Shown: one piece after another, positions 5,691 through 37,151 of the stretch
Layout of the letters: each line of letters begins with the position of its first letter
Position numbering within the stretch: position 1 is the first letter of the stretch
Virus record (IMG/VR): IMGVR_UViG_3300034155_000007
Location: 1-40,842 of that record
DNA from: a virus
Taxonomy: Duplodnaviria; Caudoviricetes
DNA length: 40,842 nucleotides
Direction: 5' to 3' (one strand)
Made by a program: the position numbers and the translations under genes
Notes under the pieces: generated by a model
What the model was told of the DNA's origin: nothing
The model's input: only the letters and a program-made list of their open reading frames with translations
The model's database searches: none

Positions 5691-6124
5691 CGGTACACCA
5701 AAACCACGGACGGGAACGGGGCGTTGTGGCCCTTCGGCGCGTCGACGCCCTCGAAGCTCAGACGGCCTCGGATGAAGCGAATCTCGCTGGCCGGCATCGC
5801 GTGTTCATGCCACCACTCGGTATCAGTCCGAGCGGGTACGAGCGCCACGATTAGCTCGCAGCGATCGCGCTCCAGACTGATCTTGCGCATCCATTCTTGG
5901 ATGGCGCGACCATATGGCGGATTAACGAACACCCGACCTGACCACTCGCGCCATAGCCCGTTATCGGTCGACCCGAACCACTCAATACCCGGCTTGATCG
6001 GTGCGGAGGCAGCCGGATCGAGCGTAAAATCGAACTCAGCGTCGAGGTCCGCGAACACCCGTCCGGGAGTGCGCCAGGTGGGGTCAGCAGCGATCCGGTG
6101 GACACCGAGATTCATGGTGGTCAT
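5687..6124 (-). CDS. Phage DNA N6-adenine methyltransferase
   Basis: W.TP, FTLDPAA, VFVNPPYG, LVPARTDT.WW, RFIRGRL.F and APFPS motifs. Confidence 0.92.
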   Translation of the reverse strand: MTTMNLGVHRIAADPTWRTPGRVFADLDAEFDFTLDPAASAPIKPGIEWFGSTDNGLWREWSGRVFVNPPYGRAIQEWMRKISLERDRCELIVALVPARTDTEWWHEHAMPASEIRFIRGRLSFEGVDAPKGHNAPFPSVVLVYR

Positions 6125-7305: not shown

Positions 7306-7411
7306 GGGAAGCCCTCTATTAGCGCAACAGGGCGGGGCGGAGAGGCTTCCCGGCCGACGCCTGCCGCCCCGTTGCACCTGTCATTGTACGCCTGCCATCG
7401 GCCGCTGTGAA
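7306..7411 (-). promoter_or_regulatory. Promoter and pseudoknotted 5' leader of the replication gene
   Basis: TTCACA (7411-7406), 17 nt, TACAAT (7388-7383); two interleaved inverted repeats in 7306-7377. Confidence 0.6.
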
Positions 7412-8546: not shown

Positions 8547-9379
8547 TCGTCGAACAGCGGAGCGGTCGCCGCCTCATGCTCGCCCACGAGGGCTACGTCG
8601 GATGGCGGCTCGGGCAGCTTCTCCTCGACAGGCGCCGGCAGAATCCACTCCTCCGTCTCGATCAGGTCAACGTGCAACCGATACCACGAGCCTGGCTTGT
8701 CGGGTCGCTTGACGTTGTACAGGATGCCGGCGACCGTGGCGACCTTGCCGACCAGCGTCTCGGGCTTCATGGAAACGGCGAGGTAGGCGGCCTCCCCGAG
8801 CGGCCCTGAGACGATGCACTGCGGGATGTTCTTGTCGCCATCGATCTCCAGGCGGAACCCGAAAACGTGGCCGTCTGGCCCCTGCCGCGCCACGAGCTTG
8901 TAGTCCTCGGCCGAGCCCTTGCGGATGATCCCCCGCCGACGGACGCGGCCAATCATCGCCTCGATGTCGCCGCGCTCGCCGTTCTTGTCGTTGTCAAGGT
9001 CGCCCGACCTGTCGTCCGCCTTGTTGTCGATCTCGTTCTGCGTGGCAATCGAGGCGTCGATGAGGATGCCGAGCGACCCGATGGCCCGGCCCCACGCGCT
9101 TGTCTCGGCGTTCTCTACCTCGGAGCCCTTCGTGTAGGGCGTCCTGCCGGGGAGCTCCATCCACGACCAGCCGACGCCGGGGTGCGGGTCGTCTACCGTG
9201 CGATAGGCCAGGGCCTTGACGACGACCCGGGGCGTGCCGTCCTCCATCCAAATCTCGACCCGATCGGTAACCAGCCGACCGCCGCCGAACAGTTCGTAGA
9301 ACTTGGCGATCCGGTCCTTGACCTGAACGTAGTCCCCAAGCGACTTGGCGACGCGCTCGCCAACGGTGGAGTCAGCCAT
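8543..9379 (-). CDS. Putative single-strand annealing/recombination protein
   Basis: DYVQVKDRI..F and ENAETSAWGRA..LGI motifs typical of phage annealing proteins; beta-rich C-terminal domain. Confidence 0.6.
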   Translation of the reverse strand: MADSTVGERVAKSLGDYVQVKDRIAKFYELFGGGRLVTDRVEIWMEDGTPRVVVKALAYRTVDDPHPGVGWSWMELPGRTPYTKGSEVENAETSAWGRAIGSLGILIDASIATQNEIDNKADDRSGDLDNDKNGERGDIEAMIGRVRRRGIIRKGSAEDYKLVARQGPDGHVFGFRLEIDGDKNIPQCIVSGPLGEAAYLAVSMKPETLVGKVATVAGILYNVKRPDKPGSWYRLHVDLIETEEWILPAPVEEKLPEPPSDVALVGEHEAATAPLFDE

Positions 9380-9620
9380 CGGTATCCCCCTTTAGTGTGC
9401 CGTGCCAGTCCAGAGGTTCGACTACGTTGCCTTGGGCGTCGGAATGCCATGAGGGAGCGGGCGACTCGTGGGCGACCTCCCACTGATCGATGACGTTCAG
9501 TACGTCCTGAACGTGAACCCAACGAGGCAGCACCTTTCGCCCGTCGGTCAGGGCTAGGACTCGGCCGCGCAGTTCTTCGATTGCCAGCGTCGTCCGGTCA
9601 AGTCCGATACCGTTGCTCAC
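9372..9620 (-). CDS. Hypothetical protein
   Basis: Coupled ORF with RBS. Confidence 0.7.
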   Translation of the reverse strand: MSNGIGLDRTTLAIEELRGRVLALTDGRKVLPRWVHVQDVLNVIDQWEVAHESPAPSWHSDAQGNVVEPLDWHGTLKGDTDG

Positions 9621-11972: not shown

Positions 11973-12166
11973 GGCAACCGCCCCTGCGGAAAGACGACCG
12001 CCACCACAAACAGCACCACCACAACGGCCGCCGCGAACCCGCCGACGCGCCGGTCAGGCTGGTGCGCCTGCCGCAGCGGGTTCGCCGGCAGCTCCAGGAG
12101 CGCGGCCCCGAGGACGAGGCAGCCGACGAACAGGGCGATCCCGAGGAGGAGCAGCTCGGGGGTCAT
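11969..12166 (-). CDS. Small 2-TM membrane protein
   Basis: MTPELLLLGIALFVGCLV...; coupled overlaps. Confidence 0.65.
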   Translation of the reverse strand: MTPELLLLGIALFVGCLVLGAALLELPANPLRQAHQPDRRVGGFAAAVVVVLFVVAVVFPQGRLP

Positions 12167-12447
12167 CGGGACGGCTCGCGGAGGCGTTCGTATTCGGCGG
12201 CGACGTCCTTGCCGCAGTTGGCGACGCATGGCTCGTTGGCCCAGAACTTGGTACGGTGCTCAACGATCGCTTTACCCAGCATCTCCACGTCCAGCCCGCG
12301 CGCCAGCGCGATCAGGCGGCGGATCGTGTCGGGATCGCAGGCGCGGTCTAGGGCGAGAATGGCCCCTAGCCGGGGTGCCCCGAGCGGTGCGGTTTGCGCC
12401 TTCTCGGCCAGCGCCTCCAGTGCGTCGAGGTCCAGCGGCTCGGTCAT
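12163..12447 (-). CDS. Hypothetical protein, [16 protein letters not shown] family (Ead/Ea22-like N-terminus)
   Basis: First 16 codons identical to 16005..16202; LDAL..LAEKA...P.TI..LI pattern. Confidence 0.7.
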   Translation of the reverse strand: MTEPLDLDALEALAEKAQTAPLGAPRLGAILALDRACDPDTIRRLIALARGLDVEMLGKAIVEHRTKFWANEPCVANCGKDVAAEYERLREPSR

Positions 12448-12632
12448 CGTGATGCCAAGCCGTTCACAACTGGATCAGGGCGAGCGGCAATCTCGGCGTG
12501 TTTACGCACAGCGGCAGCGAACTTGGCGGCGGCTTCATCTTTCGTGCGGCCGTGAACGGCCCACCCACCACTGATGGGACGGGCTGCCCACCCACCTTTG
12601 ATTTCGTAGAACTCGGGCGTCTCTCCGCTCAT
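12444..12632 (-). CDS. HicB-like small protein
   Basis: GGWAA...GWAVHGRTKDEA...F..AV resembles the HicB partial RNase H fold. Confidence 0.5.
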   Translation of the reverse strand: MSGETPEFYEIKGGWAARPISGGWAVHGRTKDEAAAKFAAAVRKHAEIAARPDPVVNGLASR

Positions 12633-13099
12633 CCCGCTACCTGCCCCTTCCGAAGCTGCCACGCCAGTCGGGCGATCAGCGCCAGACCCAGCATCCCAAT
12701 CCAGAACCCGGCCGGCCCGTTCGGGTTGGTGGGCGTCGTCATGGAGGTCGGCGGCAGGGTCAAGGTCGGCGTGTTCTCAGGTGTCGGCGCGGGCGTAATC
12801 GCAGGCGTCGGGCTCGTGGTCGCGGACGGGGTAGGCGTGGCCGAAGGGGTCGGCGAAGGCGAAGGCGTCGCGCTCGGCGTAGGCGTCGGCGTGCACTGGC
12901 CGGCTTCCTCGCAGGTGAGCGGGCGGGTCGGCGTCGGGCTGACGCTGGGCGTCCACGAAGGCGTGGGCGTCGGGCAGTGCTTGTAGGTCGAGTAGAGCCC
13001 GGGCTGGCAGCCGGTGGCGGACGCCGAGGGTGCCCCGATGAACAGGGCGAGCATGGCGATAGCGGCCAGGACGGAGAGGGCGACGCGGATACGGGTCAT
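12629..13099 (-). CDS. Pro/Thr-rich surface protein, copy 2 (signal peptide, LPPTS, TM, basic tail)
   Basis: Signal peptide ending ASA, PT/PS repeats, LPxT motif followed by hydrophobic helix and RK. Confidence 0.75.
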   Translation of the reverse strand: MTRIRVALSVLAAIAMLALFIGAPSASATGCQPGLYSTYKHCPTPTPSWTPSVSPTPTRPLTCEEAGQCTPTPTPSATPSPSPTPSATPTPSATTSPTPAITPAPTPENTPTLTLPPTSMTTPTNPNGPAGFWIGMLGLALIARLAWQLRKGQVAG

Positions 13100-15898: not shown

Positions 15899-16008
15899 AG
15901 CCCGTCCCCCACCCGCCGCCGCTCCGGGAGCAGCGGATCAGGCCCGGCGATCGCGGCCAGTCGCAGGCCGACCACGATGGCGACAGCGAGGGCGAGCAGC
16001 GCGATCAC
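15895..16008 (-). CDS. Small hydrophobic protein (37 aa)
   Basis: GTGA overlaps at both ends; [15 protein letters not shown]. Confidence 0.5.
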   Translation of the reverse strand: MIALLALAVAIVVGLRLAAIAGPDPLLPERRRVGDGL

Positions 16009-16202
16009 GACGCGGACTCCGCGCCATAGGGCGGCGTCTCGGGATACTCAGTCAGCCCACAGATCGTGCAATGCCAACCGGTCTCGTCATCTGCAGCGTC
16101 GACCCAGTAGTGCTCATGGTCGGGCTTCGTCGCCGCATCCGGTCCCGGCGTCACCTTCTCGGCCAGCGCCTCCAGTGCGTCGAGGTCCAGCGGCTCGGTC
16201 AT
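16005..16202 (-). CDS. Hypothetical protein, [16 protein letters not shown] family
   Basis: 51-bp identity with 12399..12449; HEH.W...CTICG C-terminus. Confidence 0.7.
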
Positions 16203-16687
16203 CGGGCCTGCCACTTCCGAAACTGCCACGCGAGTCGGGCGATCAGCGCCAGACCCAGCATCCCCACCCAGAACCCAGCCGGCCCGTTCGGGTTGGCGGG
16301 CACGGTGCCCGTCGACGTGGCCGGAAGGGTCAAGGTCGGCGTGTTCTCAGGCGTCGGCGCGGGCGTGATCGCAGGCGTCGGGGTCGGCGTCGGGGTCGGC
16401 GTTGCGGATGGCGTCGCAGAAGGCGTGGCCGATGGAGTCGCGGACGGGCTGGGCGTCGGCGATGGCGGGCACTGGCCGAGCTGTTCGCAGGTCGGGTACG
16501 GCGTGGGCCGCGGGGTCGGCTGCGGACTCGGTGAAGGTGTCCACGAGGGCGTGGGCGTTGGGCAGTGCTTGTAGGTCGAGTAGAGCCCGGGCTGGCAGCC
16601 GGTGGCGGACGCCGAGGGTGCCCCGATGAACAGGGCGAGCATGGCGATAGCGGCCAGGACGGAGAGGGCGGCGCGGATACGGGTCAT
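16199..16687 (-). CDS. Pro/Thr-rich surface protein, copy 1 (signal peptide, LPATS, TM, basic tail)
   Basis: Near-duplicate of 12629..13099. Confidence 0.75.
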
Positions 16688-16806
16688 GGGTGGGTTCCCC
16701 TCAACTGAATGAGCTGTGCTTGGATGACCGGCCATCGCTGGCCCCACATGGCGGCCTCGAGACGGCGACGGGCGGCGAGCAGGCGGAACGCTACGGCGGG
16801 CTTCAT
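16684..16806 (-). CDS. Small hypothetical protein ([10 protein letters not shown]...)
   Basis: ATGA overlaps at both ends. Confidence 0.5.
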
Positions 16807-16955
16807 GCGGGCTTCCCCCTCTTGGCTACGCTGGCCTGCAAGTCGGCCACGGTCCACGCCACGGGGCGGTCCACGATGGCGGGGCGGCGGTCGTCCAGCG
16901 ACTTCGCCGGGAGCTCGTGGCGGGCGGCGCGCTGGGTCCACGGCGAGGTGGTCAT
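16803..16955 (-). CDS. Small hypothetical protein ([10 protein letters not shown]...)
   Basis: ATGA overlaps at both ends. Confidence 0.5.
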
Positions 16956-17152
16956 GCGAACGCTGCCCGTGACGCCTCAGTGGCGTCTCGCAGCGCCTGT
17001 CGGTACTGCTCAGCTTGGATGACTGTGATGACGGCGGACCGCTCCAGGACGTGAACGGTCTGCCTGGAGAGCCGCATTCGTGCGGCGATGTCCACAACGG
17101 TGACATTGGCTGCCCGTCGTTCAGCCCGCAGATCCAGTCCGGTGGTTGGCAT
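16952..17152 (-). CDS. Cro-like XRE helix-turn-helix regulator
   Basis: LRAERRAANVTVVDIAARMRLSRQTVHVLE; first gene of the leftward early operon. Confidence 0.8.
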   Translation of the reverse strand: MPTTGLDLRAERRAANVTVVDIAARMRLSRQTVHVLERSAVITVIQAEQYRQALRDATEASRAAFA

Positions 17153-17158
17153 GGCTAG

Positions 17159-17275
17159 ACTGTAGGCCCGTGGCCTGACAGTTGTCAAGACGTTAGGTGA
17201 CGCCAGACGTACTAGTGACAGTTGTCAGGTAGTCCTGCTCGTGGCACTTGACAACTGTCACGACATGCGTAACGT
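17159..17275. promoter_or_regulatory. Divergent promoters with three TGACA-N2-TGTCA operators
   Basis: Palindromes at 17176-17187, 17216-17227 and 17249-17260. Minus: TTGACA, 18 nt, TACAGT. Plus: TTGACA, 16 nt, TAACGT. Confidence 0.85.
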
Positions 17276-17282
17276 ATGGCCC

Positions 17283-17576
17283 GTGTACCGGCCATCGAAG
17301 AATTCGCCTCAGACCGCATGGGCGCGCCATCTAGACCAGGTGTTGCGCGACCGTGACTGGGTCGGCGTGCTCGCGGTCCACGATCCGACGCCCGGGATCG
17401 GCTACCTGTGGCTGCGCCTCCCGCTCGCAGTCGCGCTCCTGTGGTGGGGTGCGCGGTCAGACCGGCGGTGGGTCGTCCCGATCGCCGCGATGCTCGGCCT
17501 GCCCGTGCTCCGGATCACGGGGCTCGTGCTGCTGGTCGGCTGCATCCCGTTGGCTAGATCAACCTCTCGCGTCTAG
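17283..17576 (+). pseudogene. Chimera of a repressor-like N-terminus and a membrane glycosyltransferase (GT87-like) C-terminus
   Basis: Sits at the repressor position; about 26 hydrophilic aa switch abruptly at RDW to LRLPLAVALLWWGARSDRRWVVPIAAMLGLPVL. Confidence 0.55.
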
Positions 17577-19319: not shown

Positions 19320-19717
19320 CAGCCAGCCACCAGATCACGAACGATGGCGAGCAGCGCCGCCGGGAGGTCCTCGCGCAGCCGCCGCGTCCGCACGACGCCT
19401 TCTTCATCTGTCCACGTCCGCACGATGTCACCAGCGGGGTCGTCCACAAGGATCGGCGGGTTGTGGACGCGGATCGGGTTGAGGTCAGGCGGCGTCACGT
19501 TCACGCCCGCGCGCTGGATGCGGACAGAGAACTCGAGCAGGTCGTCTGTGAACTTCGGAGCCGTCGTCAGCGTCACCTTCCAGGCGACGCCCTTGATCGT
19601 GCGCGAGACAGACCGCCCCATTTGGCCGGACAACGCAGCGAAGGCACGGGCCTTGACCCGATGCCGTTCGCGGGCATCAGTGACGGCGCTGATGGAATCC
19701 GTGATCGGGTGAGCCAT
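19319..19717 (-). CDS. Hypothetical tail-region protein (starts MAHPITDS)
   Basis: TGATG overlaps at both ends; NP.RVHNPPILVDDP.G motif. Confidence 0.7.
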   Translation of the reverse strand: MAHPITDSISAVTDARERHRVKARAFAALSGQMGRSVSRTIKGVAWKVTLTTAPKFTDDLLEFSVRIQRAGVNVTPPDLNPIRVHNPPILVDDPAGDIVRTWTDEEGVVRTRRLREDLPAALLAIVRDLVAG

Positions 19718-21945
19718 CAGACCCTCACCACCTTGAGGACGAGGGTGCAGCGTTGGATCGTCGTACACGAGTCCACGTTGATCCGAAGGATGTCCCCGGC
19801 CGTGATGTCGTCGCTCGTCCAGTCCGTGATCGTCGTGTCCGTGGCATTGGTGGCCGTCGTGATCGTCGGTTCCTTGCCAGCTCCGGGCATGGCGTCGGCA
19901 TCGGTCGGCGGGAAGTTGCCCAGGGTATCGCGCCAGATGTCCACGACGATCGAGCCCGACTGGTCTGCCAGCAGCGTCCACGAGCTGATCGTGCAGGCGA
20001 AGTCCACCTGGAGGTCGCCCTTGATCCCGGTCGTGATCGCCGACCCACCACCGTCGATGACGAAGTTGATCGACTCGGTTGGCAGGACCGTCGGGCCAGT
20101 CGGTCCGGTGGGACCTGTTGCGCCTGTCCCGGTCGGCCCGGTTGGTCCAGTCACGGTGGAATCGGCACCCGTAGGTCCAGTTGGGCCAGTCGGCCCGGTT
20201 CCGCCGGTTCCGCCGGTTGGGCCGGTTCCGCCGGTCGCTCCGACGCCGGTTGGGCCAGTAGGACCGGTTGCGCCGACCGTATCCGCCAGCACGGCCCCGC
20301 GGAAGTTGAACAAGTAGCCGCTCGTCGTCGTGTCCGCCACGAGCAACGGCTTGGACACCTGCCCGAGCGTTGTCGGTTCGGTGGCCGTCAGGGCTCCTGC
20401 GGAACTCGGACTGAGGAAGTAGACGGTGCCTGCGGTGAGCCCGGTCAATCCGGTGATCCGGCCACCCAGTGCCAAGGTGAAGTCATCATCGCCCGCGACG
20501 GCCGAGACGACCCCGACTGCCTCCGCATTCGCGGCGCTATCGGCTTGCGCCTCGACGTAGGCCGTGCCATTGAGCCGAACGACATCGCCGACTGCGAAGC
20601 CGTGAGCGACCTGGTTGACAGCGAGGACAGAGCCCGTGGGGCCTGTGCTTCCGGTAGGACCGGGTACCGTGGAATCCGCACCTGTCGGCCCGGTCGCGCC
20701 TACCCCCGTGGGACCCGGGCTTCCGGTGGCCCCCACGCCCGTGGGTCCAGTTGGCCCCGGAACCGTGGAGTCTGCCCCCGTGGGACCCGTGGCGCCAACG
20801 CCCGTGGGGCCTGTCGCGCCGACGCCCGTAGGCCCGGTGGCACCAGCGACACCCGGATCGCCCTGCGCCCCAGTGACGCCGACCCCTGTCGCTCCAGTCG
20901 CGCCCGTAGGCCCCGCAACGGTACTGTCCGCGCCTGTGGGCCCCGTAGGTCCCGCTACGGTTGAGTCCGCGCCTGTAGGTCCGGTGGCACCTACGCCCGT
21001 GGGGCCGGTAGGCCCGGGGACTGTGCTGTCTGCGCCTGTAGGTCCGGTGGCCCCGACGCCCGTCGGCCCGGCATTTCCCGTCGCGCCGGCGGGGCCGGTG
21101 ATTCCTACGCCCGTTGGTCCCGTGGGTCCGGCTACCGTTGAGTCCGCCCCTGTCGGTCCGGTAGGCCCGACGCTTCCCGTCGCTCCCACACCCGTTGCTC
21201 CGGTTGCACCGACGCCCGTTGGGCCGGTGGGTCCCGCGACACCCGGTTCGCCCTGCTCGCCGGTCGCCCCGGTGACGCCTACCCCCGTCGGTCCTGTCGG
21301 CCCGGGGACGGTCGAAGCTGCGCCCGTTGCGCCGGTCGCTCCGACTTCGCCCTGTTCGCCTGTCGCGCCAACTCCCGTGGCCCCCGTTGCTCCAGTGGGT
21401 CCCGGAACGGTCGAGTCCGCGCCTGTCGCTCCGGTCGGGCCGGGGACGGTCGATGCCGCCCCCGTGGGCCCCGTCACGCCTACCCCCGTTGCCCCGGTGG
21501 GACCGGCAACTGTGGAGTCCGCGCCCGTGGCTCCCGTAGCCCCGGTGATCCCGACGCCCGTCGGCCCCGTCACGCCGACCCCGGTTGCGCCCGTAGGTCC
21601 GGCAACGGTGCTATCGGCCCCTGTCGCCCCGACCTGACCTTGCGCTCCCGTAGGTCCGGCAACGCCCACGCCCGTGGGTCCGGTAGGTCCGGGAACCGTA
21701 CTGTCCGCTCCCGTCGCTCCGGTGGGGCCTGTCACGCCGACGCCCGTGGGCCCTTGGATTCCAACGCCCGTTGCCCCCGTCGCGCCCGTGGGGCCGACCG
21801 ACCCCACCGTGAAATCGACCGTTGCCACGCCATCGGCGACCGACACGCCGCCAGGGAAGTCGAACTCGCGCGCGACGCCCTGCGAGACGCCGGCCTCGGC
21901 CACGCCGATCTGCGCGTTTGGAACGGGTCGAACGGTGGCGGTCAT
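19717..21945 (-). CDS. Collagen-like (G-X-T) fibre protein
   Basis: Long GPT/GAT triplet runs interrupted by ADSTV(A/P) and VG, plus two globular domains. Confidence 0.9.
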
Positions 21946-23261
21946 GCGGCACGCTCCTGGGGTGTCAGGGCAAGGTTGCGGGTAACGGCATCGCGGACGG
22001 CTTCGGGCAGATCGGGATCGGCAAGCAGGGCTTCGGACAGCACCCGGAACTCCTCAAGCTGCCCGATGTGCCAGGCGGCGATGCTCCGCTCCAGTGCGAT
22101 CCCCCACGTCCACACGCCGGGCTCGACGAACAGCCCCTCCGGTGGTTGCAGGGAGGGCATAGAATGCTGAGCATGATCGCCCGAGACCCGCATCTCACCT
22201 ACGCCTTCACGGTCGAGGAGGAGCGTGCCATGCTCCTCGCCGCGGAGCGACGTATCCGCGCCGAGGAGTCGGCTATCGTCGGTAACCCGAGTCTCTGCAC
22301 CTACCGCACCGGCCACGGAATGTGCGGGCAACCGCTGGTCTTCGATTGGCACGGTGTCCGACTTGGCAATGACCTCGGAGGCCCGCACCGATTCCGCCAC
22401 GATCCCTCGTTGGTCGATCAGACCCCCTGAGAGGAGCTGGTAGGCGGCGCGGTGGCAGCCGTGGGCGTTCAGCCCCTTGACCGCGTAGTACAGCGGCTCG
22501 AGGCGTAGCGGCCAGCGTTCCCATGCCGCCAGGAGCTCGGCAGCCTGCGCCGGCCAATCGGTGAGCAGCGCGGCGCGATAGGCGGCGTACCACGCTTCCC
22601 CGCTGGTATCCATGAGCGACCGCTTGACGTAGAGATCGCGCGCGCGAGGGTCGCCAAGTTCGCGGTAGGTCTGCGCGAGGTAGAACGTCGAGCGGGCGTC
22701 GAACGGCTGGCGAGCCAACTCCTCCTCGAGCAGCCCAGCGTGCCAGTGCCGCTTGGATGGGGAGGATTGCGTCGGCGGAAAGCTGACCCGGATCGCGTCG
22801 GTCGGCACGCCTCGGTACGGCTTGCCATTGGCGAGCGCCGAATACTCGTGGACGGCCCCGATGCTCTTCCACGGGAGGTCGCCCTTGAGCACCAGCGGCA
22901 GCCGCCACGCCACGGCGGAATCGCGCATCTCGATCAGGGCCGCGTCCCAGTCGGGATCGGGCACGAAACCCTCGTCGATCTCCACGGTCATGTCCGCGTC
23001 TAGGGCGAGGATCCACTGCGAGCGGCCGTGCGCCCACGCGAACACCTCGCTTCGGTTGTGGCCGAAGTTGACGAACGGCAGGTCGAACAGCTTGCCAGGG
23101 ATGCCGGCCAGCACTTCCTTGACGATGGCCTTCGTTCCGTCCGTGGAGCCGGTGTCCGAGATCGTCCAGTAGCCGATGTGCGGCTTGGCTGACTCCAGGC
23201 AGGCGCGCAGGGTCGCCTCGCCGTTCTTGACGATCATGGCTAAACCGTAGGTGGGGGTCAT
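21942..23261 (-). CDS. GT2-family glycosyltransferase with TPR-like C-terminus, carrying an in-frame insertion
   Basis: [33 protein letters not shown] and FYLAQTYR motifs. Confidence 0.88.
22164..22430 (+). CDS. Small hypothetical protein nested antisense in the GT2 gene (start 22164 or 22173)
   Basis: G/C-ending codons on the plus strand; TAGAAT 7 nt before ATG 22173; GGGAGG before ATG 22164; C-x8-C...H..H pattern. Confidence 0.6.
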   Translation: MLSMIARDPHLTYAFTVEEERAMLLAAERRIRAEESAIVGNPSLCTYRTGHGMCGQPLVFDWHGVRLGNDLGGPHRFRHDPSLVDQTP

Positions 23262-32438: not shown

Positions 32439-34412
32439 TCAATACCCAACCCCGACTCGTTCCTGCCCGACGTGCTCGACCCACGGTGGGCCGGCTTTCG
32501 CTCCCCACAGCCCGACCTTGGCCCGCCGGTCCCGGAACAGCCGCCGGCTGAAATGGTGCTCGGAGTTCGGCACCGCCGGCCACTGGCGCTGCAAGACTTC
32601 GACCAGCGCCCGGCGCACGAGGTGGGGTTGCAACGAGTAGAACTGGCGGTGCTCAACCCACGTCGAGCCGTTGGTGCCGTGCTCGGTGAACAGCGCCGGG
32701 TCAAAGCGTTCGATCATCCCGCCCGCCGCGACCTCTGAGGGAAACCACGCCTGCCGCTTGAGCACCATCTGCTTGATGTCGTCGTCGGCGTCCATGACGC
32801 GGACCATCGCGGGCACGTCGATCGGCCGTTGGTACACCAGGTCATCCTCGGACCAGATCAGCCACTCGGCCTCAATCTTGGCAGCGGCAGCAAGGGCAAA
32901 CCGCACAGCTCCCGCGTGACCGAGCCGGCGGTGGCCGAGCACCGTCCAGCCGGGGAACTGCGACTGGAGCCACGTCACATAGGCCGGGTCCCCGGAGTCG
33001 TCGCAGATGATCCGCTCACTGAACGGGCCGGCCATCTCCTCGAGCGATGGGATGGTTTGGGCGATGCACTCCCGCCGGCCGTCGGTGATGACCACGGCGC
33101 CCACTTCCGGGGGTCTGGGCGGCTTGCCGTCGCGTTCGTCGAGGAGCGCCTGCACCTGCGCCTTGCGGGTGGCCCGTTCGTACCGGTGGCCGAGCGCGAT
33201 GTTCGCCAGGTACTGCGGATTGTCGGTCGAGCGGTCCGGCGTCTTCTCGTGCCACAGGTGATGCACCTGCCCCGCGAACTCGTGATAGCCGCCGAACGCG
33301 CGGCAGGCCATCTCGAAGGCGGTGTCCTCCCAGCCCCACCCGCGGAAGCGTTCGTCGTACCCGCCCACGGCATCGAACAGCCGGCGCGATACGATGTTGA
33401 CCCCGCCGTGCGCCACCCCCGAGCGGAGCACCGCGACTCTGCCCGACATGGGTACGGTGCCGGTCCGCATGATCGCGTCGGCGCTCTGTTCGTCGGTCAT
33501 CACGTAGCGGTTGTATGGTCGGACGAACTGCCCGGAGCGGGCGGCCAGCGTGACCGCCTTGCGGACCTGATCGTGGTCGAACATGACGGTATCGGCGTCC
33601 ACGAACACCGCCACCTCCCAGTCGCCCGCCTTCCGCGCCGCGGCGTTCCTAGCAGCAGCGGCGTTGAACGGTCCGTCCGGAGACTCGCCCTCGAAGATCG
33701 GATAGCCGAGCGCCGACCAGTGCTTGCGGACGAACGCCCACGCCGCGTCACGCCTCCCGCCATCGGAGCGGTAGGGGACCAGGATCGCGGCCTTGACCGG
33801 ATACAGGTAGTTGGTCGAGGCCCAGAAGTGCTCCGAGTAGCTGACCTCTCCACCCGGAACGGGGCGCCCCTTGGCATCGGTCGCGTAGAACGTCCGCGGC
33901 GGCAGGATCAGCGGCTTGCAGCATTGCCGGTGGGCCAGCACGGCAGCGGTCAGGCCGGTCCCGCCCGAGGTATCCCACGGCTCATCGAGCGATGGCATCT
34001 CGGACACGAGCCGGGCGTAGGTCTCGAGGATCGGGTGCCCCTTCTCCGCGCCGATGGTGCCGTTGGCGATCCTGCCCGGGAGTGAGGGAGTCGGCTCGTA
34101 GCCCGCGAAGAACCCGGCTGCCATGAACGGGGCGCCGTCGAACGAGCGGAGCGGCTTGGAATCCACGTCCACGTAGACCCCGCCCTCGGCTCGCAGGATC
34201 TCCACCCGGGCGATGTCCGAAGCACCGTGCCAGCAGCCCTTGGCAAGCTGTTCGTCGAAGTGCTTGCGGTTGACCATCGTGAGCTTGGCGAGGTCGGCTT
34301 CGCGCCACAGCTTGACCGTCCACGTCTGATGGGCTGTGCGCCACGCCTCGATCCAGTCGGTCGGGACCGGACGCGGGCCGAGCCAAATGTGGTGGAGAAC
34401 GGTGGGGATCAC
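32439..34412 (-). CDS. Three-domain glycosyltransferase (GT32/OCH1-like + GT2/GT7C-like + GT2-like)
   Basis: IP..LHHIWLG...SD..R..IL...GGVYVDVD; VPYR...ARN...VDAD...GGYDERFRGWGWED; ITDGR...DDSGD...EDD. Confidence 0.88.
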   Translation of the reverse strand: MIPTVLHHIWLGPRPVPTDWIEAWRTAHQTWTVKLWREADLAKLTMVNRKHFDEQLAKGCWHGASDIARVEILRAEGGVYVDVDSKPLRSFDGAPFMAAGFFAGYEPTPSLPGRIANGTIGAEKGHPILETYARLVSEMPSLDEPWDTSGGTGLTAAVLAHRQCCKPLILPPRTFYATDAKGRPVPGGEVSYSEHFWASTNYLYPVKAAILVPYRSDGGRRDAAWAFVRKHWSALGYPIFEGESPDGPFNAAAARNAAARKAGDWEVAVFVDADTVMFDHDQVRKAVTLAARSGQFVRPYNRYVMTDEQSADAIMRTGTVPMSGRVAVLRSGVAHGGVNIVSRRLFDAVGGYDERFRGWGWEDTAFEMACRAFGGYHEFAGQVHHLWHEKTPDRSTDNPQYLANIALGHRYERATRKAQVQALLDERDGKPPRPPEVGAVVITDGRRECIAQTIPSLEEMAGPFSERIICDDSGDPAYVTWLQSQFPGWTVLGHRRLGHAGAVRFALAAAAKIEAEWLIWSEDDLVYQRPIDVPAMVRVMDADDDIKQMVLKRQAWFPSEVAAGGMIERFDPALFTEHGTNGSTWVEHRQFYSLQPHLVRRALVEVLQRQWPAVPNSEHHFSRRLFRDRRAKVGLWGAKAGPPWVEHVGQERVGVGY

Positions 34413-34429
34413 GGGTGTACACTTCCGGC

Positions 34430-34678
34430 ATGAAAGTCGTCAAACGACGCGTCGTCGACTACGACTGGGGCGACAACCAGACCTACCGATTCCATGTGTG
34501 GTTCGCTGCCGAGTTCAAAGAACCGCCAGAAGAGGTCCACGATCCCGGGCTTGGCGGACCATTGGGCGGTTACCTGGTGGATCAGTTCATGACTAGGGAC
34601 GAGGCCGACGCCTTCGCCGCCGGCAGACCGTCGATAGTCATCACCGAAAATCCGCATTGGCGGGCGCGTCGCAACTAG
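34430..34678 (+). CDS. Small hypothetical protein, antisense within the late operon
   Basis: G/C-ending codons, natural composition, TACACT 6 nt before the ATG. Confidence 0.6.
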   Translation: MKVVKRRVVDYDWGDNQTYRFHVWFAAEFKEPPEEVHDPGLGGPLGGYLVDQFMTRDEADAFAAGRPSIVITENPHWRARRN

Positions 34679-34680
34679 CG

Positions 34681-35637
34681 TCACGCTGCGATGGCCCGGA
34701 CGCTCTCGCCCGCGTCCATGCGGAGGATCACGTCGCGCAGCTCGCCTGCGGTGTACTGCGGGGCGAGGTCGCTCCGGTACTCGAAGCCCTCCGGCAGCAG
34801 CCCGACCGGCTTGCCCGACAGCGGCCCGAGCACGAAGTCATGTTCCCGCGACACGGCGTGCGGCGCCTCGTGAGCGTTCAGCAGTTGCTCGTGCCGTTTC
34901 TCGCCGGCCCGGAACCCGACTTCGACGGTGGGATGGCCGGGCGCGATAGCTTCGGCCATGACCGCCATCGAGGAGGCGCGGGACTTCGGGATCAGGACCG
35001 AGCCCGATGGCAACTGAAGTCCGGCCACGATCAGGTCCACCGCGTCGTCGAGGGTGATCCAGAAGCGGGTCATGCCGGGGTCGGTCAGGGTCAGCGGCTT
35101 GCCGGCGGCCACCTGCACCCGGAGCGCGGGAATGACCGAGCCCGTCGAGGCGATGACGTTGCCGTACCGAACGAGGGTGAAGGCGCAGCCGGTTGCCGCC
35201 TGGAACAGCCGCTCCATCAGCGCCTTGCTCTGACCGTAGGCGTTGATCGGCGCGCACGCCTTATCGGTCGAGATGCCGATGATCCGCGGAACGCCGACCC
35301 GCATGGCTTCGCGGACCACGTTCATCGAGCCGACGACGTTGGCTTGGACGCACGCCATCGTCTCGCGCTCCGCCTCGGGCACCCGCTTGTAGGCCGCGGC
35401 ATGGACAACGACATCGACCCCGCGCATGGCGGCCTCGAGGGAGTCGGAGTCGCGCACGTCGCCGAGCACGTAGCGGGCATCGGGGAAGCGGTCGCGCATG
35501 ACCGACTGCTTCACCTCGTCGCGGGAGTAGACGACGAACCGGGCATCCCAGCGTTCGGCGGTGGCGCGGGCAAGGATGGCCCCGCCCAGCGACCCGGAGC
35601 CACCCGTGACGAGGACCGTGCCGATCATCCCATTCAC
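34681..35637 (-). CDS. UDP-GlcNAc 4,6-dehydratase-like SDR (PseB/FlaA1/CapD family)
   Basis: TGGSGSLG, SRDE.KQ, HAAAYK.VP, STDKA..P.N.YG.SK, RYGNV..S.GSVIP and MTRFW motifs. Confidence 0.92.
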   Translation of the reverse strand: MNGMIGTVLVTGGSGSLGGAILARATAERWDARFVVYSRDEVKQSVMRDRFPDARYVLGDVRDSDSLEAAMRGVDVVVHAAAYKRVPEAERETMACVQANVVGSMNVVREAMRVGVPRIIGISTDKACAPINAYGQSKALMERLFQAATGCAFTLVRYGNVIASTGSVIPALRVQVAAGKPLTLTDPGMTRFWITLDDAVDLIVAGLQLPSGSVLIPKSRASSMAVMAEAIAPGHPTVEVGFRAGEKRHEQLLNAHEAPHAVSREHDFVLGPLSGKPVGLLPEGFEYRSDLAPQYTAGELRDVILRMDAGESVRAIAA

Positions 35638-36248
35638 CGATACAGGTACGTGAACCGATCCGGCCACGACATCTCCAGCTCGTAGCCGGGCAGCAGCGTC
35701 GCCGCCTCGACGCCGAACGACCAGTCTTCGATCAGGACCAGCGGGTGGCAGCGGGCGATCGTCTCAGCAGCCCCGCGGATCACGGCGGCCTCGTGGTTCT
35801 CCACGTCGATCTTGAGCAGAGTGACGTTCCGCAAGTCCAACGTGTCGAGGGTGATCGCGCCGACCTCGACCTCGCCGTCTTCCGAGACGAGGCAGGCGCC
35901 CATGTTGCCGGGGTTCGGCTGCATCCGAAGGGTCCGCGGTATATCCGAGAGCGCGACCTGGTAGGTGCGCACGGACGGGCAGCCGCCGACGTTGGCCCGG
36001 AGCAGCGCGTAGTTGGCCGGCATCGGCTCGAAGGCGTGGATGCGGTCGTGCTCCAGGAACCGCGCGAAGTACGCGGTGTGGTTGCCGACGTTGGCCCCGG
36101 CGTCCACGATGACCCGCTGGGACGGATGGCGGGCTGCGAGGTAGTCGAGGATTTCGGCTTCGTAGAAGTCGCCCGACAGCCGGACGCCATCGGACACGCC
36201 CTCGCCCTCGGGGTGCAGCGTGAGCGGGACGCCGCGGAGTTCGATCAC
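35634..36248 (-). CDS. FkbM-family methyltransferase
   Basis: VDAGANVG, AFEP, TLD and LKIDVE.HE..V..GA motifs. Confidence 0.92.
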   Translation of the reverse strand: MIELRGVPLTLHPEGEGVSDGVRLSGDFYEAEILDYLAARHPSQRVIVDAGANVGNHTAYFARFLEHDRIHAFEPMPANYALLRANVGGCPSVRTYQVALSDIPRTLRMQPNPGNMGACLVSEDGEVEVGAITLDTLDLRNVTLLKIDVENHEAAVIRGAAETIARCHPLVLIEDWSFGVEAATLLPGYELEMSWPDRFTYLYR

Positions 36249-37135
36249 GCCGCCACCGCCACGTCGGCCAGCCAGTCGGTGATCGCCGCGGCGGCGCGGG
36301 ACCCGGCCCCGTAGCGATAGGCGTAGGCGATCAACAGGGCGCGTTCGCGGTCACGCTTGGCGCCCATGCCATCCGCGAGAGCCGACGCGACGCCCGACAC
36401 GAGATCGGCGGGGGAGCCGACGTTGAGCCCGACGCCCGCCGCGGTCCAGAAGCGCAGTCCCAGTTCGACGTTGCGGCGCATCGCCGGCCCGTTCAGCACG
36501 ACGACCGGCCTGCCCGTGGACGCGAACTCGTAGAGGGTCGAGCTGTTGTCGCAGACGTACAGCGCCGCCCGCTCGCAGACCTCGCGGAAGTCGGCGACGA
36601 ACGGGATCCCGAGCCGGGCGTACATCCGTTCAGCCTTGCGGGCGATCCGGGGGTGGGCGTGGCCGATGACCTCGAACCGCTTGGCGAGCTCCGGGAGGGC
36701 GGGATGGTAATAGACCATCGTGGACTGCATCTCGGGCGCCAGGCTGGAGCCCCAGTGGAACGACGTACAAACGACCGAGCCACCGCTGCCACGCGGCAGG
36801 GTATCGAGCACCGGGTCCCCCACGACCTCGACACGGGCGTTGGGATAGGCACGGCTGTCCATGCCAGCGGCAGTTTCGTTGGGCGACAGGAAGAGCCCCA
36901 CGGCATCGCGGTTCTTGCCGCCGGGATAGGCCGGGTGGCCGTTGCCGTAGCTCTGCCCGATGCCGTGCTCGAGGTAGGCGATCCGCCGGTAGCCCAGAGC
37001 ACGAGCCTTGAGCAAGTCCTGGTAGCCGGCGACCAGCACCGCGTCCAATGTCCGGTGCGTCCGCTCGCCGCGCTCGGGGAGGGCGTCCCAGACCGGATCG
37101 AGGTGAGCAGCGTACTGGGGCGTCGAGACAATCAT
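36245..37135 (-). CDS. GT-B fold protein, CDP-glycerol glycerophosphotransferase (TagF)-like
   Basis: EHG, VVGDP.LD, HP and YVCDNSSTLYEFASTGRPVV motifs. Confidence 0.65.
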   Translation of the reverse strand: MIVSTPQYAAHLDPVWDALPERGERTHRTLDAVLVAGYQDLLKARALGYRRIAYLEHGIGQSYGNGHPAYPGGKNRDAVGLFLSPNETAAGMDSRAYPNARVEVVGDPVLDTLPRGSGGSVVCTSFHWGSSLAPEMQSTMVYYHPALPELAKRFEVIGHAHPRIARKAERMYARLGIPFVADFREVCERAALYVCDNSSTLYEFASTGRPVVVLNGPAMRRNVELGLRFWTAAGVGLNVGSPADLVSGVASALADGMGAKRDRERALLIAYAYRYGAGSRAAAAITDWLADVAVAA

Positions 37136-37151
37136 GTCGATCAAGAGACGG

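Follow-up and report, generated by a model that had tools for sequence, protein, structure and literature searches.

A putative small gene inserted in frame and antisense within a phage glycosyltransferase gene

Introduction

Fully nested genes are usually ascribed to overprinting or to selfish nucleases. The locus described here raises the question of whether an apparently ordinary small gene could have been taken up complete by an enzyme gene, in the opposite orientation and with both reading frames left open. The window that we analyzed is a whole virus record of 40,842 nt (IMGVR_UViG_3300034155_000007; Duplodnaviria, Caudoviricetes), whose minus strand carries the terminase, portal, scaffold, capsid and tail genes. 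The runs holding this phage record best are peat metagenomes, and the nearest GenBank matches of its portal are in actinobacterial phages, at 35-38% identity. One glycosyltransferase (GT) of the late operon, labeled P0001 below, contains a stretch in which a sequence-only reading had seen a complete antisense gene. The protein of that inner plus-strand ORF is labeled P0002, and the features of the locus are collected in Table 1.

Table 1. Coordinates of the features discussed in the text (positions in the window).
Feature	Position	Strand	Remarks
Host gene, GT2 glycosyltransferase with TPR-like helical C-terminal part	21942-23261	-	439 aa; PF00535 E 5e-7; SunS/ThuS-like fold
Collagen-like (Gly-X-Thr) gene, downstream of GT	19717-21945	-	Start ATG overlaps GT stop as ATGA, 21942-21945
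In-frame insert, ~267 nt (~89 codons)	22164-22430		Ends placed only to ~22158-22168 and ~22424-22434
Inner ORF	22173-22430	+	85 aa from likely leaderless ATG 22173; 88 aa from ATG 22164; 66 aa from ATG 22230; TGA 22428-22430
Conserved Cys/His module (C45, H51, C54, H63, H75, H79), Pro-stop end	22296-22430	+	25 invariant columns in 4 sequences
-10 box TAGAAT	22160-22165	+	7 nt ahead of ATG 22173; no -35 hexamer
Strong Shine-Dalgarno-like site before ATG 22230	22215-22223	+	Top 1.3% of 479 plus-strand ATGs
AGGGAGG before ATG 22164	22150-22156	+	Top 2.1% of 479; upstream of -10 box, outside best-fitting insert
Second backward ORF	34430-34678	+	82 aa; TACACT (from 34418) 6 nt ahead of ATG 34430; start chosen by gene callers
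Stop-free in-register bridge ORF	34409-34684	-	91 aa; 4-nt overlaps with epimerase stop and next GT start

Results

The host enzyme and its surroundings

In the model of the GT, built from a 120-sequence alignment, pLDDT reaches 90 or more at 329 of 439 residues, and its top Foldseek matches are the peptide glycosyltransferases SunS (7msn, E 1e-14) and ThuS; against the SunS equivalog it fails, with 15 bits vs a cut-off of 350. A GT-A fold with an invariant DXD motif (D88-A89-D90) is followed by helical repeats, the arrangement of a GT2 enzyme with TPR repeats, and all 17 family-invariant residues are present (17/17). The order of the GT and the collagen-like gene is the same in the insert-free relatives L009 and L043, and from neighborhood and fold we infer that the collagen-like protein could be the GT substrate. 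A sugar-modification cluster (32439-37144), consisting of an epimerase, a methyltransferase and a two-domain galactosyltransferase, lies between portal and scaffold; together with the tail-region GT, it suggests a glycosylated virion. In a separate observation, one metagenome contig carries four tandem copies of the window GT's family (L116:3995-8212).

An in-frame insert in a variable loop of the GT

Our search for GT homologs returned 407 proteins at E <= 0.001, and the best 120 of 407 were used, giving 119 homologs of 323-388 aa. The insertion of about 90 aa that had been postulated where relatives have a short linker was borne out by their alignment: the spacing from Y274 to F378 is 103 residues in the window GT vs 13-22 in 117 of the 119 homologs (14 in 82 of them), while the motifs AAYQLL and PPEGLF of the window GT stand 95 residues apart. 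In the nearest homolog, P0003 (86% identical, 350 aa), the loop has 13 residues, and the two homologs with longer loops have 36 (P0004) and 51 residues (P0029). This insert was found in 0/119 of these homologs from the best 120 of 407, with no patchy homing-type spread over alleles, and loop-covering GT loci from related contigs likewise do not have it; it is known from one phage type and one allele. Within the genome it is single-copy, and its ends carry no terminal inverted repeats, no end-to-end palindrome of note and no clear target duplication. An element of the MITE or Rickettsia palindromic element (RPE) type, being multi-copy or end-to-end repeated, was rejected on these grounds.

The insert is real and not an assembly artefact. 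A 510-nt contig from the separate run X4, not marked as a candidate source of the window DNA, covers 21982-22491, including both junctions, with 0 differences and 0 gaps, although X4 comes from the same habitat and year as the window's runs and possibly from one campaign; a contig of run X6 crosses the left junction. A joint that skips the insert was found in none of 4 low-depth runs, in which contigs reveal presence and never absence. To place the junctions, we took in-frame excisions of 258-276 nt, 300 in all, and scored each on a profile built from the 117 short-loop homologs. All of the top 13 are 267 nt long, and the top 11 have their ends in the ranges 22158-22168 and 22424-22434. The span that runs precisely from ATG to TGA, 22164-22430, belongs to the best excisions, yet it does not stand out, so the claim that the insert matches the plus-strand ORF exactly holds as one of several good placements and not as a unique one. 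The DNA of the nearest insert-free relative (L037, with 99% identity to P0003) stops at residue 253, ahead of the loop, so the junctions are placed to these ranges.

In the helical C-terminal part of the enzyme, the insert site falls between helices and is distant in sequence from the DXD motif, and residues 303-369 of the model fall below pLDDT 50. As an alignment without depth gives such values, disorder can only be inferred; the insert is predicted to be a low-confidence loop outside the confident SunS-like fold. A tree of the 43 best rows joins P0001 and P0004 as sisters (96/70), and the long-loop state needs at least 2 changes on it (at least 2 origins). The P0004 and P0029 inserts are unrelated to that of the window (p 0.45 and 0.17), and a common origin of the P0001, P0004 and P0029 inserts was unsupported (p 0.17-0.79), six frames also having been compared. 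The GT loop is therefore predicted to be insertion-permissive, with a length that varies across the family. At three different sites of the GT family, P0004, P0054 and P0074 carry in-frame Cys or Cys/His inserts of 21-22 residues, which possibly reflect the same habit of capturing small modules.

If the insert were spliced out as a group I/II intron or mini-intein, the mature GT would be free of the loop. The insert is in frame, and the RNA of the minus strand has a slightly more stable fold than its shuffled versions (z -2.4), both of which splicing would accommodate; Rfam at E <= 5, however, returned only two weak unrelated matches and no intron family, residues 277-372 contain no Cys, Asn, HN, HQ or TxxH and have no Pfam match, and the site is a variable loop with no conserved motif. 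We consider splicing extremely unlikely.

Homologs were found for the plus frame and not for the minus frame

Which of the two frames is the gene cannot be read from openness. The inner ORF lies codon-on-codon opposite the GT frame, and in 479 windows of 267 nt from the phage's own genes this in-register antisense frame is stop-free in 56% (the other registers in 15% and 10%), so that a stop-free minus frame is no proof of dual selection. Codon usage leans to the plus frame. The inner ORF was described as having G/C-ending codons over 85-88 aa, and it does (69/88 over 22164-22430), ending at the predicted TGA. A/T-ending codons in the minus frame are enriched in the insert, with 28/89 vs 31/276 in the GT proper (Fisher p 2e-5). 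CAI over the insert is 0.71 for the plus and 0.61 for the minus frame, where 249 gene windows average 0.71 and the 99th percentile of their antisense is 0.70. The codon log-likelihoods of 0.30 vs 0.24 differ by a small gap; over the conserved module neither frame leads, and the minus frame equals or beats 24% of gene windows. A further 14 plus-strand ORFs clear a similar CAI filter, most of them probably as shadows. The case for a plus-strand gene, as judged from sequence, is one that rests on homologs and not on codon scores.

The full HMMER search with P0002, over 1.84 billion representatives, gave 7 matches at E <= 0.001, and three of them match its Cys/His module clearly: P0122 (71 aa, 63% identity, E 3e-16), P0123 (102 aa, 57%, E 2e-9) and P0124 (71 aa, 55%, E 1e-7), all three predicted proteins from Logan assemblies only. 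P0002 and these three all terminate in Pro, and their N-termini differ. P0124 has a 7-residue in-frame indel inside the Cys/His module, and the fact that it keeps the frame favors conservation at the protein level. The module is likely to be metal-binding, as judged from its conserved Cys and His residues. Conservation of the segment in the minus frame, which had been named as the outcome that would overturn the plus-strand gene, was not observed: the insert is missing from the 119 homologs, and searches of GenBank phages and NCBIfam returned nothing for the minus-frame peptide. The proposal of dual-strand coding, with two selected products, was unsupported: the minus-frame peptide looks like passive filler. 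The open minus frame is not beyond chance; the plus-frame homologs and the rarity of the -10 box are.

Several candidate relatives of P0002 were dropped. P0125-P0128 (E 6e-5 to 6e-4) are long repeat-protein noise, P0131 and P0132 matched only the N-terminal half of P0123, and an in-genome match to the ORF 9372-9620 (E 0.025) was judged to be chance, as were the single-motif matches L035 and L036 in a GTDB scan (2/116). No match was returned by a word-based search with P0002, and none to the inner protein was found in GenBank phages. Locus scans of viral contigs gave no true relative (three short weak matches to residues 13-31; 0/80), a JGI metagenome scan 0/596, and 5 related virus records 0/5. 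DNA-pattern scans of viral contigs returned at least 179 loci, and among the matches listed none has the whole module. ESM Atlas gave none, with matches only at 0.83 in a second search. PDB sequences gave only a weak unrelated match (E 0.068). P0002 belongs to no Pfam, PHROGs, NCBIfam or PADLOC family and has no nuclease motif, and its AlphaFold model is poor (mean pLDDT 52). The inner protein is also absent from a 15-billion protein collection, and gene callers give the outer gene only.

The shared ends of these proteins could be read as the mark of a tiny mobile element, namely a Cys/His module whose 3' end is fixed and which can insert itself into unrelated genes of phages either way, like ShiLan but with no known nuclease. 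The four relatives stop at the same Pro with differing N-termini, and in P0123 the module comes after a 47-residue stretch that shares 89% identity with P0131, itself module-free. Moreover, the insert ends lie ~6 nt or less from the start signals and stop of the ORF, as described for ShiLan (PMC11855218). Yet there are only 4 members in 1.84 billion representatives, no second copy in the genome and none in the 5 related records (0/5), and we found neither terminal repeats, nor a clear target duplication, nor a nuclease motif or family match; ordinary shuffling of phage modules yields a like pattern. We regard a mobile module as improbable. Comparison of P0123 with P0131/P0132 shows a small membrane protein whose C-terminal part, past residue 47, is replaced by the module.

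Start signals and the fate of the plus-strand transcript

The TAGAAT hexamer reported ahead of the inner ORF is present and rare. When both strands of the genome were searched for sites with >=5/6 consensus positions and with TA and the final T kept, it was 1 of 3 sites, and 22173 alone among 941 ATGs has such a box 5-8 nt upstream. A TANNNT motif ~12 nt ahead of the start is described as a mark of leaderless genes (PMC3160421). The same -10-to-start spacing is seen in an HTH cro-like gene (ATG 17152) and the gene facing it (GTG 17283), there together with TTGACA. The other two near-consensus boxes are at 7388 (-), 85 nt upstream of a replication-initiator-like gene, and at 6025 (+). As to the region of the HTH gene, 16952-17576 is immunity-like, with facing promoters (TTGACA at 17188 on the minus and 17249 on the plus strand), each then followed by a leaderless-type start; the plus ORF from GTG 17283 has a repressor-like start that runs into a hydrophobic stretch, with no family match, and may be broken or fused.

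An alternative ribosome-binding site had also been proposed, and here the result was mixed. Two Shine-Dalgarno-like sites are above background; AGGGAGG, however, precedes the -10 box, falls beyond the limits of the best-fitting insert and is probably host-derived, and of the two only the site of ATG 22230 would sit on a transcript from TAGAAT. An 11-mer that overlaps that site (22219-22229) recurs ahead of the ATG of the collagen-like gene, on the minus strand. Between 22218 and 22268, two mutually exclusive hairpins share 22233-22238, one of which would hide the Shine-Dalgarno site of ATG 22230 and the other expose it, and this pair may be only a reflection of GAG/CTC codon symmetry.

The view of the insert as a self-contained expression cassette was overstated. 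No -35 hexamer was found for the inner ORF, AGGGAGG is not part of the best-fitting insert, and a scan of 21800-22800 found 0 intrinsic terminators (the scan being blind to Rho-dependent and U-poor ones). TAGAAT itself is inside the junction-uncertainty zone and may therefore have arrived with the insert or formed at the joint. On the antisense strand of the 3' part of 21 well-scoring insert-free GT loci, such a box was found in 0/21.

A strong -10 box aimed into the late operon could also serve a selected antisense regulator, the plus transcript being kept mainly to damp the late operon (the GT and upstream tail genes) through RNA pairing or polymerase collision. The absence of a terminator-like site on the plus strand until 25965 and the competing hairpins around ATG 22230 also count for this reading. 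The conservation, however, is in the protein frame, the plus-strand RNA fold is unremarkable (z -1.5), and the box is missing from all 21 insert-free loci. A regulatory RNA as the selected product is very improbable in our judgment.

A second backward ORF in the same operon

Between the epimerase and a 657-aa GT of the same late operon lies a second backward ORF that has a -10-like box at a similar distance from its ATG and is covered on the operon strand by a stop-free bridge ORF (Table 1). No homolog of the ORF 34430-34678 was found. Taken together, the two cases suggest that backward cargo lasts in the late operon where the operon strand stays translated. In the early region, 12163-13099 and ~16005-16690 are near-duplicate blocks, each with a Pro/Thr-rich secreted-type gene and then another gene.

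Is the enzyme, or the inner gene, decaying?

The ORF 21942-23261 has zero internal stops, and as the sequence-only reading held, the insert has added no stop or frameshift to the 439-aa ORF: the C-terminus and the ATGA coupling to the collagen-like gene are intact in sequence. Upstream of the loop, dN/dS vs L037 is 0.19 over 251 codons (residues 3-253, both branches). After the insert, identity to P0003 is 69% vs 84-90% upstream (rank 22 of 120 from the bottom), and the near-invariant F390 is changed. This drift may represent relaxed or compensatory change, or recombination, and raises the possibility that the enzyme may be decaying.

With a decaying or dispensable GT, the insert could be a dead passenger, an unexpressed gene fragment in a permissive loop with a -10 box that is a leftover or an accident of the junction. 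The insert has been seen once only, in about half of such cases the minus frame would be open by chance, and neither a -35 nor a terminator accompanies the insert; the position of TAGAAT within the zone of junction uncertainty and the drift of the GT C-terminus would also fit. Against this, the ORF runs whole from its start signals to the Pro-stop common to the three homologs with 25/25 invariant columns kept, has the sole box of its quality at leaderless distance among the 941 ATGs, and is matched in geometry by the second cassette. A dead passenger is thus unlikely, although it deserves to be taken seriously.

Discussion

A nested antisense ORF of insertional origin is, from the sequence comparisons above, real and well supported in the one allele known. 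The reading that we favor, with moderate confidence, is that a backward promoter-plus-gene cassette (a moron) was captured in a tolerated loop of the GT, which reads through it as filler while the inner gene is expressed leaderless. A promoter-plus-gene piece would have recombined illegitimately, backwards and codon on codon, into the tolerant loop, and the GT would translate through ~89 filler residues while keeping its coupling to the collagen-like gene. We infer that the insert survived because it is a multiple of three and landed in the often stop-free antisense register, so that the C-terminal helices and the coupling were kept. A sigma-70-type host polymerase would make a leaderless plus-strand mRNA from ~22173, and this would give the 85-aa protein, or 66 aa via the internal Shine-Dalgarno site, which would probably be small and metal-binding through its Cys and His residues. 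Plus-strand transcription would by itself yield antisense RNA, and any influence of that RNA on late transcription would come as a by-product.

A broader reading, which we put forward tentatively and consider rather doubtful, is that this is a natural gene-in-gene made by insertion with non-nuclease cargo, in which the GT and the antisense Cys/His protein are both made and kept; that backward cassettes persist only where the operon strand stays translated, by a bridge ORF (34409-34684) or an enzyme loop (22164-22430); and that the Cys/His module is perhaps a small mobile unit found in either orientation. The second cassette makes the translation-through rule testable within one genome. Since gene callers report the outer gene only, nested genes of this kind would be missed, and where phage protein alignments contain long shadow-like insertions, the opposite strand is worth screening. 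A search of the open-access literature, mostly at the level of titles and abstracts and without most subscription journals, turned up no natural case in which a gene other than a nuclease had become nested antisense, through insertion, in the gene of a phage enzyme.

Morons are found between genes, usually together with a terminator. Like them, the window insert is an extra small gene that is missing from the syntenic relatives L009/L043, has a promoter-like signal and is opposite to the late operon; unlike them, it lies inside a coding sequence, with no intrinsic terminator found. RPEs, ~150-bp palindromic and multi-copy elements (PMC10969869), likewise add a peptide to a host enzyme by in-frame insertion, whereas the window insert occurs once, carries no palindrome from end to end and shows its conservation in the antisense frame. 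Some inteins carry a LAGLIDADG or VSR-like endonuclease ORF on the antisense strand (bioRxiv 10.1101/2025.01.02.630785) and so share the separate opposite-strand gene inside a translated phage ORF. Their filler leaves with the intein on splicing and their cargo is a homing endonuclease, while the window insert has no splicing domain.

A closer parallel is the ShiLan domain, an in-frame stop-free insert in actinophage DNA methylases with a hidden HNH ORF in frame 3, predicted to loop out (PMC11855218; PMC9957025). In both cases a stop-free in-frame insert in a phage enzyme gene is nearly filled by a complete ORF of another frame, lacks intein or intron support and, by prediction, loops out from the enzyme. 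ShiLan has 202 aa, its frame-3 ORF codes for an HNH endonuclease, and it sits among conserved residues in several phage clusters; the window insert, in contrast, has 89 codons, is antisense, has its own -10 box and no recognizable nuclease, and occupies a variable loop in one phage type. The other parallel is engineered: overlapping alternate-frame insertion (OAFI) uses recoded, same-strand genes (bioRxiv 10.1101/2024.11.07.622342), and like the present case it places the inner gene in a flexible loop of the outer gene, in another frame, with both frames open. The window case differs in being natural and antisense. It would work like ShiLan or OAFI, failing the nuclease, homing and splicing features, and, as an apparently ordinary small gene seemingly taken up complete by the gene of an enzyme, it would be a natural form of the OAFI design.
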